Origin: an uncultured archaeon | Lineage (GTDB): Archaea; Iainarchaeota; Iainarchaeia; Iainarchaeales; 1-14-0-10-31-34 | NCBI GenBank assembly: GCA_964442255.1 | Contig: CAYTYC010000008.1 | Coordinates: 1 to 53,972, forward strand | Direction: 5' to 3' | Length of the DNA stretch: 53,972 nucleotides | In this document: in pieces, positions 33,001-42,000 of the stretch | Layout: each line of letters begins with the position of its first letter | Numbering within the stretch: the stretch's first letter is position 1 | Made by a program: the position numbers

Positions 33001-36000
33001 ATCCTTTACCTTGGGCACTCGGGATTCAAGATAAGTTTTCCCAGCGCAAACGTCCTTGTGGACCCTTTCCTGAAAAGCCCGGAAGACGGGAAAAGAATGG
33101 AGGCGTCCCCCTTTAAGGGAAAAGACCTCCGTGGCATCGCCTTAATACTGGTGACGCATGAACACTTTGACCACTTTGAAAAGGAAACAATTGAGGAGAT
33201 TGCCTCCAGGGACAACGCAATGGTTGTCTCCCATGAAAGCGTTCTGCAAAAGCTTTCCCTTCCATCAAACCGCCTTAAGCCAGTGAATGCAGGGGACAAG
33301 CTCGGCCTCATGAAAGTCAACATTGAGGCCGTTGCGGTGCACCATCCGCATTCCTTTTACCCCCTTGGCTTTTTGCTTGACGAAGGCAAAGAAAAAATTT
33401 TCCACGCCGGAGACGCCTCCTTAACCGACAATTTCTCCAAAATCAGGGCAAACGTGGCTTTGCTTCCCATTGGCGGAAAGTTCACAATGGACTGCGTGGA
33501 CGGGGTGCGCGCGACAAAATCACTTAAGCCTGATTACGTTGTGCCCATGCATTACAACACATTTGAGCAAATCAAATGCAATCCCGAAGAATTCAGGGAA
33601 CGCATTGACAAATCCATCCTGAAAACCCTTCCGGTAATATTAAAACCCGGGCAAAGCCATAACTTCAAGTTTTAGAAACTTTTCAAAAAAGTTTCATCAA
33701 AACAAACTTTTTTCCAAAAAGTTTGATCAAAAAGGGCCGCCTTCGGCAAGCGGCTTACGCCATGCGGCTTCGCCGTTGACGGAAAATTGACGCCCGTATC
33801 AGGAAAACCCCGCACTTCAGTGCGGGGAGGACGCCATTTCCCTAATTCAGGGCCCATATCCCGTAATTCAATGCGGAGGCAATGCTGACCCACGCCAAAT
33901 ACGGGAGCATCAAATAAGCTGCTTTTTTTGAAACCCTGTAAAAAAGAATGGTTGCTGCGAGAATTGAAATCCACAAAACAATTATTTCAGCGAACGCGAG
34001 GAAAGGGTTTCTCAGCCCAAAAAACAAAACAGACCACAACGCATTTAACCCAAGCTGCAAAAAGAAAACCCCTGCTGCGGGCTTAACCTTTTCCGTGTTC
34101 AGCCCTTTTTCCCACACAAGGTAGAGCGCCAGCCCCATCAGAGTGTACAGCGTAATCCACACCGGCGCAAAAACCCAGTTTGGAGGCGCAAAAAAAGGCT
34201 TTTGGAGTGAAGCATACCATCCGGGGATTGCGGGGGAAGTGAACACACTTCCTATCACTCCTGCAAGCTGGCAAACAAGTATTGCCGCAATTAATTTCAA
34301 TGCATTCATTTCACTTCAACCTGCATTAAATCCTCTGCCACCGTGCTTTCAGCAAAAACTGTGCGCGCCTCGTTCTCGAATTTCTGGGAATCCTTCTGCC
34401 TTGCGCTCAAATGCGTCAAAAAAAGTTTCCCGCATTCCGCTTTTTTCGCGATTTCCGCGGCCTGTTTTGCGGTTGAATGGAAGGTCTGCTTTGCCCTTGC
34501 CCTGTGTTCCTCCAAAAAAGTGGACTCGTGCACCAATACGTCCGATTCGTGGATGAATTTAATGCAGCTGTTCAATGGAAGCGTGTCAGGCACAATTGAA
34601 ACCTTTTTGCCGATTTTTTTCTTGCCTGCATCCAAAACCATTTCCGGGGAAAAAGTTTTTCCTTTGACTTTCACTTTTTCGCCTTTCTGGAGCCTGCTGA
34701 ACAAAGGCCCCTCGGGAATGCCTAATTCCAGCGCCTTTTTCCTGTTGAATTTTCCCAGTGAATCCTTTTCCTTGAACACGTAGCCGTAACAGGGAACCTC
34801 ATGCTTTGCCTTGAAAGCGGTTACATTGAAGGTTTCCCTCTCTTCTACCAAACCTTCCTTGACCTCTTTTGCAAGAATTTCAAAGTTCACATTTAACATG
34901 CTTAACTCAAGCGCCTGCTTAACCTTTTCTTTCACTCCCTTTGGCCCGAAAACCTTTAGGGGATAGTCCCTTTGGTGCATGCTCATCGTGGCAAGCAAAC
35001 CCGGCAGCCCGAGAATGTGGTCTCCGTGAAAGTGGCTCAAAAAAATGTGCGAAATCTTCAGGTAGGATACCTTTGCGTGCATCATCTGCCTTTGGGTTCC
35101 CTCAGGGCAGTCAAACAAATAGTTGAATCCGTTGAAGTTCAGGTTCACGCTTGAAAGGTTTCTTTCCTTTGAGGGAGTGGAAGCGCCTGTCCCCAAAAAA
35201 GTCAGCTTCATTTTTTTTCCTCCGCCATGCGGTTTATTTCCCGGATTATCCTGTCCGCAAGTTCCGCGATTTCTTGACAGTTGTAAGTGTTTCCTTTTGC
35301 CGCAAGCAGCACTTCAGACCATCGCTTTGGATGCTGTTTAGTTAATGCCTCCATAATCATCCTCTCAACATATTCATTTAATTTTTCGCCTTCCTTCGAC
35401 CTGAAGCCGGGTTCTTTTTTCCTGTTCCCATATGCGGTTATTATTGCTTTTTGAAGCCCTGGCGAACGAAGCTCCAAAAGGATTTGCTTTTCCATTGGCG
35501 TGCGCCTGAAAAAACCCATTAATTTTACGGCACCGGATTTGATCGCTTTCAAAATTCTCCGCATTTGCACCAGACTTTCCTAACTTAAACCAAGTTCTTT
35601 TAAATACTTAATTTTATAAGCATTCTAATATGAAAGAAAATAAAAAAGCGCGGGAAAGCCTTCCTTCAGGCGAATTCGATTCAACCGCCGAATTAAAGGT
35701 GCCCAAAAAGCTGATTGACCAGGTGGTGGGGCAGGAAAAGGCCGTGGAAATAACCCGAAAAGCCGCCGCGCAAAAAAGAAACGTGCTGCTTATCTGCACT
35801 CCCGGAACGGGAAAATCAATGCTTGCGCAGGCAATGGCGGAAATCCTTCCCTTAAGCCAGTTGAATGATTTGCTTGTTTACCCGAATGAATCCGACCCCA
35901 ACAACCCAAAAGTGAGGACAGTGAAGGCGGGTGAAGGAAAAAAAATCGTCCAGCAGACCAGGACTGACGCGCAGGCACAGGAAAACAACACCCGCCTGCT

Positions 36001-39000: not shown

Positions 39001-42000
39001 AATCGCGAAGGAAGCCGTGCAAAACGTTTCCGCGCTCCTTAAAAAGCTGAGCGGAAAAGACGTTTCAAGATACGACATGCACATCCAGTTCCTTCAAACC
39101 TACCACGGCGTGGAAGGCGATTCGGCTTCAATTTCCGTTGCAGCCGCGGTGATATCTGCAATGGAAAAAATTCCTGTCAAACAGTCGCTTGCAATGACCG
39201 GCAGTTTAAGCGTAAGGGGAAAGGTCCTTCCCGTGGGCGGGGTCACCGCAAAGGTTGCGGCGGCAATAAAAGCCGGCTTTAAGGAAGTGATTGTCCCGAA
39301 GGCAAACCTCCAGGACATCATTCTTCCGCCTAAGGAACTCAAAAAAATCAACGTGATTCCTGTCGGCACGCTCACAGAGGTTTTGGAGAACGCGTTTGAA
39401 AAAACTCCGGGCAGGAGCCGGCTATTGAAAAACCTTGGAAAGCTCCTTGGATTGGAGCTTCCTTCAGTGCTGAAGAAAAAGGTTTTGAAGTCGGTTAACT
39501 GATTTTTTTTTCCTGAGCCTGTTCAGCGTTCATTCAAACAAAGCCATTTTGAATCAAAACAGTTCAAGTAAGCAGGACCCTGCCTTTCCTTAGCCTGAAA
39601 TTTTTTCTTGCAAGCCTCACGGTTTCCTTGGTTTTGTTGTCCCTGTATTCAATGGATTTGCCGGCCTTGCTTATGTTTTCCACTTTCCCCATCCAGGCGC
39701 CTTCCGCCGAGTAAACAGGCAAACCAACCAGGAGCCTGGTGATGCGCTTTCTCACGTCAAATACGCCGCTTATCCTGTAAGCCGCGAGCAGCACAATGAA
39801 GCTGAACAGCATGCTGAGCAAAAAGAAATTCAAGTCATACTGCCTTGTAATCACCTGTGTTCCGGAATCCAAAATAAACCAGACCAGCAGCACGCTTACC
39901 GCACTCAAAAAATATTTTCTCAAATGGAACGCCTTTTTCAGGTGCACCGCGTCAATGCTTCTCCCGATTATGAAGCTCAATGCGGTCAGCACAAAGAAAA
40001 GGAATGTCGCCTGCGCGGCCTGAACCGACCTGATCAAAAGGTCGGGCTCCATTGTTGAAACGAATTTGCTGTAGCCGGAAATCAGCCCGAAAACCAGGAT
40101 GAAAAGGCTTCCCAAATAAAACGGAAAGCTCAGCCTTTGAATGGAAATTGTGGAAGAAAGTTCCCTGAAGAGGCCCAAAAACTTTTCCTCTATCCCGAAG
40201 CCTTTAAGCAAAAGGTATGCACCGAACACAAGGGAAATGAGCTGAAAGCTCCAGGTTCCCAGCGCAAAGAACAGCAAAAGAAGTATTCCCGGAACCCCGA
40301 AAACAATCCTTGAAACAAAGGGGTCCTTTAAGGCCTCCTTGATTGTGTAATAAGTGGACTCAACCTCTTTCGCCTGCTTTACATAGATTACCTCTTTTGA
40401 AATAACCGGTTTCCTTGACTGCAGTACGGGAATTATTTGGTCGTCTTCTGCCCCGTCGCTCACCAAAACAAAGGCGTCGGCGGGAAATTTTTCCAGCACG
40501 TCATCCAATTGGCGGTTCACTTCATTGTCCGAACGGAAACCGTCTTTTCCGTATCCGGTAAGGGTGGCGACCTCCACCTGCGTGTAAATTTTGCTGATTT
40601 GGTCGAATTTTTTTACAGCGCCAAAAATCGCGTTCGCGTCGCTTTCCCCGGGGTCTGCCACGGCAAGCTTTGCTGCAGCGTTCAGGTTACTGTTTCTTCC
40701 CAACACGGGGCCCTTTGTCCCCGCTTTTCTCCCCAAATCGTTGTCCCTGTCAACGCAGACCACCAAAATGCTTTTTGTGGTGATTTTCTGCTTCTTTTCC
40801 GCCATAAAAAACCCTACCTATATTTAAAGAAGATAATATTTAATACTTAGCCTGGATTAATTTTTAGGGGTGCCTGCTTGATTTCAAGCCAGATGAAGAC
40901 GGTGGTGTTCATTGCCTTGGTTGTTTTAGTGGCAGCCCTTTTTTTCACTGTCTTAATTAATGCCTCAATTTTCGTGCAAAACTTTCTTTCCATTCTGGTG
41001 ATAGCGGTTTTCCTGTTCATTATCTGGCGCTTTGACTTCATTGTCTTCCTTAAGGACTATGAAAGGGCAGTGATTTTTCGTTTCGGGAAAGTGAAGCGCG
41101 TTGGGGGCCCGGGGTGGGCCTTTCTTGTGCCATTGATTGAATCTTATTCTTTGGTTGATTTGCGGACGCAGACAATTGACATCCCCACCCAGGACGTGAT
41201 TACCGCGGATGGAATTGAAATAAGGGTTGACGCAGTGCTTTACTTGAGCGTTGACCGCGCCCCGCAAAGCGTGGTGAATTCCGTGATTGAAATCCGGGAC
41301 TACAGGAAGGCGTCCATTTTGTTCGTGGTTTCCTCCATGAGGGACATAGTGGGGGGAATAAACATGTTTGACGTGATAGGCAAAATAGAGGAAATAAACG
41401 AGAAACTCAAGAAAGGCCTGGAAAAGATTTCCAAGGACTGGGGAATCCATGTGGAAGCGGTTGAATTGAAGGACGTGGACATTCCGGAAACCGTGTTGAG
41501 TGCAATGCACGGACAAAAAGCCGCGGTGCAGGAAAAGCTTGCCCGATTTGAAGGAGCGGATGCCCACAAACGGGAAATCCTTGCAGTGAAGGAGGCGGCA
41601 AGGGAACTGGATGAAAGGGCTTTAAGCTATTATTATGTGAGGGCGCTTGAAAAAATGGCTGACGGAAAGGCAACCAAAATAATTTTTCCGGTTGAAGTCA
41701 GCCGCTTGGCGGAGGCAATCGGCGGAAAGCTTCACTCCGGCCTGGAAAAAAAGGGCTTTGACTTAAGCAAGGTGCAGGGCTACGATGAAGCCATAAAGGC
41801 CTTCCTCAAGGCGCAGGCAAAAAAGAAGAAAAAATAACGCGGTTTTTTTTTTCAAAAAATTGTTTTTTTTACCCCATCGCAATAAGATAGGCCTCAATCC
41901 ATGCCGCGGCAAACAATAACCCGACCGCGACCGCAATCATCATTCCCGCGTCAGCGAAAACCGTTTGCAGCTCGCGCTTTTTCCGCATTCTCTTGCTTAC

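Follow-up and report, generated by a model that had tools for sequence, protein, structure and literature searches.

A fractured lonB gene in Iainarchaeales archaea with a free-standing LAGLIDADG endonuclease and a naturally split intein that probably rejoins its product

The stretch of DNA analysed here, hereafter the window, comprises 53,972 nucleotides of an archaeal contig from the order Iainarchaeales. At positions 35630-39502 of its forward strand lie three separate open reading frames: the N-terminal part of the LonB protease with the N-terminal half of an intein (IntN), a LAGLIDADG homing endonuclease (HEN), and the C-terminal intein half (IntC) with the remainder of LonB. A first-pass annotation had proposed this layout, and translation, matches to TIGR00764 and frame reads bore out its coordinates and composition; the N and C genes share a frame in the window, and the HEN gene lies in another. 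The N ORF (35630-36664, 344 aa, stop codon TGA) opens with a 214-aa LonB N-extein (35630-36271), which contains Walker A (CTPGTGKS), ends in ...GDVRHDPLQ and matches TIGR00764 (3-200, E 2.4e-61) as well as Pfam AAA-type N-terminal models. Its hydrophobic hairpin at about residues 123-167 is presumably a membrane anchor, as in archaeal LonB. The intein begins at a Cys codon (36272-36274) immediately 3' of ...HDPLQ, and IntN (36272-36664, 130 aa plus TGA) runs from this Cys1 through block B (TPEH) to a variable tail, with weak matches to intein_Nterm and to VMA inteins.

Downstream of IntN, a spacer that is unique in the genome (36665-37052) holds stop codons in all three frames, just as had been annotated. 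Within it lies the truncated relic of a small acidic ORF (36871-36975; 34 codons following a stop, with no start codon), which is longer in about 10 related loci, as blastn and tblastx searches of all loci with the spacer, an alignment and translations show; we read it there as about 55-60 aa, within stop-to-stop frames of 49-89 aa that carry the motif ...PEDLDGREMWIL.... The HEN gene follows at 37053-38057 and is indeed free-standing and in a different frame, but the ATG start once assigned to it is not there: it encodes 334 aa from GTG 37053 or 330 aa from GTG 37065. The latter GTG aligns with the codon that follows the ATG in relatives, there is no early ATG, and the window HEN may consequently be weakly expressed. 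The C ORF (38081-39502) starts at ATG 38081, with a TTG also at 38075. Its first 41 codons (38081-38203) encode IntC, which consists of Met, a basic head and blocks F/G and ends in ...VHN directly before SGGLGTP. The C-extein (38204-39502, 432 aa plus stop) supplies Ser+1, the AAA lid and the Lon protease domain, including the motifs that we take to be Walker B (LFLDEI) and GDSAS. The whole C ORF matches TIGR00764 at 193-606 with 648.6 bits (cut-off 516.6), and the extein matches Pfam Lon_C (5e-33) and LonB_AAA-LID.

No second LonB was found in this genome, which is 93.8% complete, in agreement with the annotation that this is the only one. All sequences used here are metagenome-assembled and many related contigs end close to the intein; one related locus (L031) contains Ns, the N frame of another (G161) has an internal TAA, and contig L037 may not belong to its bin. 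Such features would fit a decaying, intein-bearing lonB pseudogene, or an artefact of assembly or binning. Each of the three window ORFs, however, is intact. Run X1 (probably the source sample), assembled independently, reproduces 35400-39700 without a difference, and fragments from a second sample, X2, match exactly wherever they cover the locus.

The layout also recurs widely. Taking as criterion an N frame that ends 20-35 aa past block B and measures 335-440 aa, or 822/827 aa where a further intein lies upstream, we found it in at least 42 of the 196 genomes of the order, at no fewer than 43 loci from at least 16 families; the earlier count of 38 genomes and 15 families, read as conservation in dozens of species, thus holds. 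A further 32 metagenome contigs share it, all with a free-standing HEN frame and with every N frame present stopping before the HEN, and no relative was found among viral contigs. The N genes end in TAA (29), TGA (9) or TAG (5), the N-C gap ranges from 287 to 4331 nt, and N and C share a frame at 10 of 29 related loci, as often as chance would give. Since frames, stops and spacer lengths vary between genomes, neither sequencing error nor a shared frameshift accounts for the layout. The HEN is missing or disrupted at 9 of 29 loci, yet both halves there are intact, and at some loci unrelated genes, some on the opposite strand, have been inserted between the halves.

Promoter-like signals accompany each of the three genes. 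The TATA-box-like 'ttttaaata' (35598-35606), 24-32 nt before the N-gene ATG, is a putative archaeal promoter. Upstream of the HEN, a candidate TATA-like 'ttaaaaa' (37026-37032) sits in the same place as 'ttataaa' or 'tttaaaa' in relatives (24 HEN upstream regions compared) and is preceded by a shared motif, 'cac(c/a)ggaaa...ccaaa(a)g'. The third, 'tatttaa' (38051-38057), overlaps the HEN stop codon 24-30 nt before the C-gene ATG and is the putative promoter of a near-leaderless C-gene mRNA. Across related loci, all 29 C genes start with ATG, and TATTTAA, TTTTAA or TTTAAA occurs at -45 to -19 in 27 of them, as compared with 162 of 5800 positions drawn at random from those loci (2.8%); similar boxes precede HEN and N. 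Taken together, these signals suggest that the N and C genes are transcribed separately. None of the listed sequencing runs is on record as RNA.

The same observations bear on whether a contiguous precursor could be restored before or during translation, with the spacer and HEN removed from the RNA (for example as a bulge-helix-bulge intron), bypassed or recoded, so that a cis-splicing mini-intein would result. LAGLIDADG genes do occur in RNA introns of archaea, the window HEN has the intron-encoded I-Tsp061I as its top structural match, and N and C happen to be in frame in the window. Against this stand the out-of-frame majority of loci, the use of all three stop codons, for which one reassigned stop would be insufficient, an ATG in each C gene with a TATA-like box ahead of nearly all of them, and gaps of up to 4.3 kb that contain other genes, some on the opposite strand. 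There is also no Rfam family match within 35400-39700, spacer included. We regard restoration at the RNA level or during translation as very improbable.

The residues expected of an active intein are retained. Residue 1 is a nucleophile at all 43 loci (Cys at 22, Ser at 21), and block B reads TPEH at 41 loci and TTEH at one, the remaining locus being unreadable owing to Ns, so that TxEH is present at 42 of 43; T99, E101 and H102 are invariant in the 42 IntN sequences of alignment A1. On the other side of the break (alignment A2 for IntC, 27 sequences), the terminal Asn and Ser+1 are present at 29 of 29 loci. Ser+1 is kept in intein-less LonB too and says nothing specific on splicing. The penultimate His is found at 23 of 29 loci and is replaced by Ser, Cys or Lys at the other six; inteins with a substituted penultimate His are known to splice. 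Complementary net charges, as described for some split inteins, are not clearly seen between the halves. Values of dN/dS are 0.07-0.28 for IntN, 0.015-0.23 for IntC, 0.09-0.13 for HEN and 0.03-0.24 for the exteins, so that, as judged from these substitution patterns, both halves are under purifying selection; synonymous sites are saturated over the divergence across which the splicing residues stay. Low dN/dS in the halves (0.02-0.28), the recurrence of the layout with differing frames and spacers in genomes and metagenome contigs, and the lack of a second LonB make a dead or artefactual locus hardly credible.

The predicted IntN-IntC complex scored 0.86 (three runs: 0.81, 0.86 and 0.87), against 0.00 for the best control, on a test with an association mark that 116 of 157 solved complexes reached, as did 2 of 215 mismatched pairs. 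At least 91% of contacts are shared between the runs, and partner pLDDT is at least 78. Split-intein complexes have already been solved, and the pass may reflect likeness to them. Association of the halves would fit equally well a LonB that works in two pieces without splicing, the intein halves serving as a tight non-covalent dimerisation module and the AAA+ domain functioning split. The penultimate His is not universal, neither a junction peptide nor a spliced product is on record, and a non-splicing analogue has been described in phage Aeh1, where NrdA fragments assemble via tails that a mobile endonuclease left behind (PMC3045599). Pure docking, however, would need none of the nucleophile at residue 1, the block-B Thr and His (42 of 42 readable loci) or the terminal Asn, all kept without exception, and the break separates Walker A from Walker B within the AAA+ alpha/beta core. 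A permanently two-piece LonB therefore seems unlikely to us.

The endonuclease offers clues to how the split spread. The window HEN carries the motifs LLGTLFGDGG and FLDGLLSSE; it has no Pfam hit, and it hits the endonuclease portion of an RtcB model that includes an intein (E 6e-17). Its AF2 model (pLDDT 90) finds I-Tsp061I, E-DreI, the TliVMA intein, I-DmoI, PI-SceI and PI-PfuI as best Foldseek matches, and D106 and E209 are invariant in 27 HEN homologues; on this predicted structure it is a double-motif LAGLIDADG fold. In the tree, the 27 free-standing HENs group in a single clade (SH-aLRT 100), whose sister group is three HEN domains lying in frame within contiguous LonB inteins at the same site; in these inteins IntN passes directly into the homologue of the window HEN N-terminus. 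AU tests on the HEN tree reject monophyly of families f10 (p 0.012), f20 (p 2e-31) and f23 (p 0.044), the groups having been named after tree inspection and the f23 value being marginal, whereas f10 and f23 each hold together in the extein tree. This conflict between HEN and host trees points to lateral homing. In some congeners, intein dS is far below extein dS (e.g., 0.15 vs 0.78).

We thus favour, with a probability of roughly 0.8, a fractured lonB with a naturally split intein plus a free-standing HEN, whose product is stitched together after translation. The first-pass annotation had read the locus in this way, and that reading is supported by the splicing residues, dN/dS, the C-gene ATG and box, HEN loss, the predicted association and the HEN fold. 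Two adjacent genes, each with a promoter-like box, would yield LonB as two polypeptides: an N-piece, probably membrane-anchored, of LonB residues 1-214 with Walker A plus the 130-aa IntN, and a soluble C-piece of the 41-aa IntC plus LonB residues 215-646 with Walker B, lid and protease domain. The two intein halves would assemble into one HINT fold, in which Cys1, the block-B Thr/His, the terminal Asn and Ser+1 would perform protein trans-splicing. The product would join ...HDPLQ to SGGLGTP..., exactly as in the intein-less LonB of sister genomes; intein-less genes from the same family read DVRHDPLQ|SGGLGTP. The HEN probably shares its origin with the endonuclease domain that contiguous LonB inteins at this site carry in frame, and it most likely cuts intein-less lonB alleles, such that the whole IntN-HEN-IntC cassette would be copied in and the fractured state spread between species. 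Separate transcription, trans-splicing, endonuclease activity and homing are all inferences from sequence. Conservation patterns indicate that the layout is maintained under selection in dozens of related genomes, which makes post-translational joining of LonB the most likely outcome.

Our literature searches, of limited scope, found no report of a split LonB intein, and it is on these searches that the proposed priorities rest: the first protease/AAA+ host, the first LAGLIDADG fractured gene and the second archaeal split intein. The split PolB intein of Nanoarchaeum equitans is likewise found in a cellular gene of an archaeon (DPANN), in two pieces each with an intein half; its halves reportedly lie far apart in the genome with no accompanying endonuclease gene, whereas here they are adjacent and a HEN is usually present. 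In the split DnaE inteins, as here, IntN measures about 100-130 aa and IntC about 35-41 aa, with the split at the endonuclease-insertion point. The cyanobacterial DnaE inteins (PMC4760082) resemble the present case in being clade-wide, maintained both vertically and laterally, and hosted by an important enzyme, but they are bacterial, dispersed over separate loci and free of endonuclease, whereas here Cys1 and Ser1 variants coexist and +1 is Ser. The same source lists 10 contiguous LonB inteins of Euryarchaeota in its Table 2. Contiguous LonB inteins share the host protein with the window and differ in forming one frame of 1066-1158 aa that splices in cis; within the order they occupy at least six loci, inserted after HDPLQ as in the window. 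In class A of these (G039, G007, G046), splicing domain and endonuclease are both homologous to the window's, but residue 1 is Thr and HEN identity is only 32%.

Phage Aeh1 nrdA, split by mobE, parallels the window in that a mobile endonuclease fragments an enzyme gene whose two polypeptides reassemble, but it has no intein and assembles non-covalently via new tails (PMC3045599). Close precedents are the fractured genes of Dassa et al. 2009 (PMC2677866): 26-27 loci from ocean metagenomes, apparently mainly phage, with gp41 helicase, IMPDH, NrdA/NrdJ and DnaE as hosts and GIY-YIG or Vsr-like endonucleases, the word LAGLIDADG being absent from that text. As in the window, each part has control elements of its own, and the 3' end of the endonuclease overlaps the signals of the downstream gene; a gp41-7 locus lacks the endonuclease, like 9 of 29 loci of this order. 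Here, in contrast, the host is a cellular archaeal protease and the endonuclease is LAGLIDADG. Moreover, unlike in those loci, the window HEN has its homologue in the domain carried in frame by contiguous inteins at the same site, so that the fracture looks like the break-up of a bifunctional intein, not the invasion of a mini-intein.

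The locus consists of three separate open reading frames, all on one strand of the window, as seen in both the table-11 ORF listing and direct translation. The N ORF (35630-36664, +; 344 aa, stop codon TGA) encodes LonB up to ...GDVRHDPLQ and then runs on as the N-half of an intein (IntN; CHSGFNSLL... ...LTPEHK...), whose Cys1 codon lies at 36272-36274 and which stops 130 aa past that cysteine. A spacer with stop codons in all three frames (36665-37052, +) is followed by the LAGLIDADG endonuclease ORF (HEN; 37053-38057, +; 334 aa), which lies in a different frame from the ORFs on either side, and by the C ORF (+; from the ATG at 38081 to 39502), of which the first 41 aa are the C-half of the intein (IntC) before LonB resumes with SGGLGTP.... 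The N and C ORFs match positions 3-200 and 193-606 of the TIGR00764 model, respectively; the C ORF by itself reaches 648.6 bits (cut-off 516.6) and the read-through locus 864 bits. Pfam recognises Lon_C (E 5e-33) and the LonB AAA lid in the C ORF, and the translated LonB pieces contain GTGKS, LFLDEI and GDSAS, which we take to be the Walker A/B and Ser-Lys protease dyad motifs of LonB. Joining the two LonB parts (the exteins) yields DVRHDPLQ/SGGLGTP, identical to the intein-less LonB of the window's family. The ORF listing, translation and TIGR00764 matches thus bear out the three-ORF fractured LonB proposed in the first-pass annotation, except that the HEN was said to start with its own ATG: there is no early ATG, and the ORF is opened by GTG at 37053 or 37065.

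No second LonB was found in the window's genome, which is 93.8% complete. The run that is probably the source was also assembled independently, and 35400-39700 is identical in that assembly; pieces from a second sample (covering 27 of 30 bins) are identical to the locus wherever they overlap it; neither comparison reported variants or joints. Among the runs listed for this stretch, none is recorded as RNA. Across the order Iainarchaeales, a search of 196 genomes with the N ORF led us to fetch 43 split and 6 contiguous loci. An N frame stopping 20-35 aa past intein block B occurs in at least 42 of these genomes, from 16 families, and in one further genome (G096) the locus is interrupted by a contig end. 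IntN spans 122-138 aa in the split loci, and the N genes stop at TAA (29), TGA (9) or TAG (5). Wherever both halves share a contig (29 loci), N precedes C on the same strand with 287-4331 nt between them; all frame combinations of the three ORFs occur, and the frame of N is also that of C in 10 loci, which is the chance rate. When one genome of each prokaryote species was scanned by pattern, a related endonuclease turned up at 37 loci, in MAGs labelled Candidatus Iainarchaeum, Forterrea, Woesearchaeota and Micrarchaeota. Two divergent ones among them (L091 and L092, with HENs 41-45% identical) are fractured likewise, and in metagenomes the HEN frame is free-standing at 32 of 32 loci, each N frame present ending before it. 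A scan of viral contigs gave 65 pattern matches, with no relative among them. The fractured layout is neither an error nor a one-off, and it is very improbable that the locus is a pseudogene or an assembly artefact.

Several individual assemblies deserve comment. The contigs of a number of loci (L020, L026, L034, L036, L041, L053 and others) end within or just past the intein-HEN region, which fits strain variation or repeats breaking the assemblies. One split locus on a 3.4-kb contig (L037, G129:C43) is probably foreign to its bin, because its extein clusters with family f1, that of G007, rather than with the bin's own family, and because the same bin carries a second LonB of the contiguous-intein type (L057). 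In the genome of L091 (G196), N and HEN lie on one contig with no C gene in the roughly 3.9 kb that follow the HEN, and the best C-fragment match is elsewhere (C69:895-2229); the halves may be dispersed, or may be parted only by a contig break.

The intein halves keep the residues that class 1 splicing by a HINT domain uses. Residue 1 is Cys at 22 and Ser at 21 of the 43 split loci, with Cys in the window. Block B reads TPEH at 41 loci, as in the window, TTEH at one, and is unreadable because of Ns at the last; T99 and H102 are invariant in an IntN alignment of 42 sequences. At the other end, where the window has HN/S, both the terminal Asn and Ser+1 are present in 29 of 29 loci. The residue before that Asn varies: His (23 loci), Ser (3), Cys (2) or Lys (1). 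Nei-Gojobori dN/dS, computed only for pairs with unsaturated dS, is 0.07-0.28 for IntN, 0.015-0.23 for IntC and 0.09-0.13 for the HEN, the same range as for the exteins (0.03-0.24). The main rival to splicing is that the two LonB pieces assemble non-covalently and function as they are. Such an arrangement would have no need of the nucleophile, block B and terminal Asn, and their retention speaks against it; we regard it as unlikely.

Trans-splicing would require that the halves find each other. Predicted from two alignments, the IntN-IntC complex scored 0.86 (runs 0.81, 0.86 and 0.87), and the highest of three controls was 0.00; the mark applied to such predictions is attained by 116 of 157 solved complexes and by 2 of 215 mismatched pairs. 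The runs have at least 91% of contacts in common, partner pLDDT is at least 78, and the predicted interface involves the IntN tail and nearly the whole of IntC. Because split-intein complexes exist in the PDB, this score may reflect likeness rather than prove binding. A PDB sequence search with IntN gave only a weak match (VMA intein, E 0.019). A comparison of net charges revealed no clear complementarity between the halves, with medians of +1 for both and solely the IntC head basic (+4). Two types of IntN, Cys1 (CHYGFNEL...) and Ser1 (SxIDEDxFVV...), pair with near-identical IntC, which suggests cassette recombination (the cassette being IntN, HEN and IntC) and cross-compatible halves.

The stop past IntN, the ATG of IntC's own and the unlinked frames indicate that the halves would be translated separately, as different polypeptides. 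C genes begin with ATG in 29 of 29 loci, and 27 of the 29 carry TATTTAA, TTTTAA or TTTAAA at -45 to -19, compared with 162 of 5800 positions drawn at random from those loci. The window's copy of the box (38051-38057) shares bases with the HEN stop codon and is 24-30 nt upstream of the ATG, a spacing that fits a putative archaeal promoter of a near-leaderless mRNA. Similar boxes precede the N gene (35598-35606) and the HEN ORFs (37026-37032 in the window), the latter together with a shared upstream motif. Furthermore, N and C persist where the HEN does not: it is intact in 20 of the 29 loci, absent in L025, L030, L040, L043, L054 and L055 and broken in L019, L046 and L052, and in these nine loci both N and C are intact. 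The gap also holds unrelated genes. An ORF of 230-270 aa with a weak match to Zn_dep_PLPC lies on the same strand directly upstream of the C gene in seven gaps from five families (L013, L028, L030, L044, L047, L050, L055) and may travel with the cassette. Others contain an AAA_14 ATPase (L043, L046, L054) with DUF4143 in L046 and L054, on the opposite strand in two of the three loci, a reverse transcriptase and Lcl_C (L040), a nucleotidyltransferase (L030) or a TPR protein (L052). Read-through, recoding or RNA-level removal of the insert does not fit the C-gene ATG and box, the loss of the HEN and these gap genes. Repair of lonB at the RNA level, which would make a continuous message from the pieces, is accordingly a highly improbable alternative to trans-splicing.

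The window's own spacer is not a repeat within its genome, where matches extend over only about 30 nt, and no Rfam family was found in 35400-39700. An 89-aa ORF (36824-37093, +) with CxxC-like pairs (CPKTNVTRC, CGFCGN) overlaps the HEN start; it is without a Pfam or PHROGs match and is probably spurious. About 10 loci have a small acidic ORF between N and HEN, of some 55-60 aa (stop-to-stop frames 49-89 aa), with the motif ...EEIKxVKxIAxxNPEDLDGREMWILxEF...; longer copies are found in L035/L074, L107, L113/L114, L116, L070/L101, L052/L083, L130 and others, and positions 36871-36975 of the window are a truncated relic of it.

By sequence, the HEN has no Pfam match, including none to a LAGLIDADG model; it matches an RtcB model that includes an intein, in the endonuclease portion (E 6e-17), a sole PHROGs family, of unknown function, and weakly, in the PDB, PI-PkoII (E 0.66). 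Its AlphaFold model, built with 27 homologues, has a pLDDT of 90, and Foldseek relates it with probability 1.00 to I-Tsp061I, E-DreI, the TliVMA intein, I-DmoI, PI-SceI and PI-PfuI (E 1e-7 to 2e-4 for I-Tsp061I, I-DmoI, PI-SceI and PI-PfuI). The model predicts the fold of a monomeric, double-motif LAGLIDADG enzyme, an alpha-beta-beta-alpha-beta-beta-alpha pseudo-dimer. The motifs are LFGDGG and LLSSE, each with one putatively catalytic acidic residue (D106 and E209) that is invariant in 27 sequences.

This endonuclease probably originated in the intein itself. At the same LonB site, the intein is contiguous in six genomes of the order, in frames of 1066-1158 aa. In three of them (G039, G007 and G046, here class A) residue 1 is Thr, and IntN continues without a stop into ...ILDEEDIIQTFSKKDQ..., which is homologous to the start of the window's free HEN (...VLVSEQDILNTYSKKEQ...). 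With the endonucleases of another LonB intein as root, the 27 free HENs group as one clade in the tree (SH-aLRT 100), whose sister is the three class A domains (97). The transition between contiguous and fractured states thus happened once. The tree itself leaves the direction unfixed; we infer that the contiguous form came first, since LAGLIDADG domains are in general found in frame with their intein.

After this event, the cassette seems to have moved. While the extein tree tracks families, with 19 changes against a minimum of 18, AU tests on the HEN tree rejected family monophyly for f10 (p 0.012), f20 (p 2e-31) and, marginally, f23 (p 0.044), the groups having been picked after the tree had been viewed. 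IntN dS is 0.12-0.15 among L040, L041 and L042, where extein dS is 0.78-0.84, and 0.88 between L021 and L022, with 1.61 for the exteins, so that in two genera the cassette is far younger than the gene that hosts it. Between L027 and L054, 44% of the non-synonymous sites differ in IntN and only 2.6% in IntC, which suggests that the halves can be mosaic in origin. Within the window's family, lonB is fractured in the window's genome, G005 and G002, contiguous in G007 and free of an intein at this site in G001, G003, G004, G006 and G008. This distribution has the pattern of a homing cycle, presumably driven by the free HEN, and we infer from the conflict between HEN tree and families and from the lower dS of the intein than of the extein in congeners that the enzyme would cleave the intein-less allele.

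LonB has been invaded elsewhere, too. A second, different split intein occurs in five loci, L015 (G033), L019 (G016), L028 (G122), L039 (G048) and L055 (G002), at a site that corresponds to about 38414 of the window (residue ~114 of the C ORF) and is unoccupied there. In these loci, ORF2 (622-665 aa) encodes IntC1, 70 aa of LonB, IntN2 (Cys1), an in-frame LAGLIDADG domain and an HTH-like tail before its stop, and ORF3, whose ATG overlaps that stop (ATGA, TAATG, ATGTTTAA), encodes a ~36-aa IntC2 ending in HN/C and then the remaining LonB. Here the endonuclease is still fused to IntN. LonB of these five genomes would have to be made from three polypeptides. Contiguous inteins are also found near Walker A (~residue 62 of the N ORF) in N frames of 822 aa (L055, G002) and 827 aa (L035, G171), and after ...AHLRVE in a C frame of 993 aa (L025, G047). 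This makes at least four intein insertion sites in the LonB of this order.

Anatomy, conserved splicing residues, selection, fold and phylogeny together support the split-intein, fractured-gene interpretation of the first-pass annotation, in which trans-splicing would restore LonB. Two, probably three, transcripts would give three products, an N-piece that is probably membrane-anchored, a C-piece that is soluble and the endonuclease; the two intein halves would dock, trans-splice and release full LonB, while the endonuclease would play no role in splicing and would only spread the cassette. Our joint reading, to which we give about an even chance (roughly 0.5), is of a fractured-gene system of cellular DPANN archaea that is mobile and still evolving: a LAGLIDADG intein of lonB with both functions would have broken once into IntN, a free HEN and IntC; the cassette would home between species; the gap would be a landing pad for cargo genes; in one genome the halves may have drifted apart onto different contigs; a second, independent split intein, carried by LonB in at least five genomes, would mean that this membrane protease has to be assembled there from three polypeptides through two trans-splicing reactions orthogonal to each other; and the family would amount to a natural collection of split inteins, dozens in all, of both the Cys1 and the cysteine-free (Ser1/Ser+1) type.

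Split inteins of natural origin are scarce, and widely used tools for protein ligation are built on them. With the lonB locus, its family comprises at least 43 natural variants; about half combine Ser1 with Ser+1, the cysteine-free type sought by engineers. The locus is of clear interest to both intein biology and protein engineering. One gene in one archaeal order displays a contiguous bifunctional intein, its fractured form with a free HEN, HEN loss and the insertion of foreign genes. If our reading is true, these archaea with reduced genomes assemble their sole LonB, a quality-control protease, post-translationally, probably at the membrane, and this step could limit or regulate protease activity.

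A literature search that included few subscription journals returned no description of a LonB intein that is split, none of a free-standing LAGLIDADG gene in a split intein, and a single passing mention of split inteins in DPANN. The priority suggested in the first-pass annotation, as first of its kind in some respects and second in another, is plausible but unproven. In the literature covered, LonB inteins occur only in contiguous form, with 10 in Euryarchaeota tabulated in PMC4760082. The closest parallel is the fractured genes of Dassa et al. 2009 (PMC2677866), which, as that paper defines them, keep their parts at one locus without change of order or orientation, are broken at a split intein and have a free endonuclease between the halves; the lonB locus has all of these. 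It differs in four ways: the loci of that paper are mainly from phage; their endonucleases are GIY-YIG or Vsr-like, and the word LAGLIDADG is absent from the text, whereas ours is a LAGLIDADG enzyme; the host here is a cellular archaeal protease; and the lonB HEN appears to be the intein's own former domain. In 2009 a pathway was proposed by which genes break and split inteins arise, and the lonB loci match this pathway in cellular genomes and with a LAGLIDADG enzyme.
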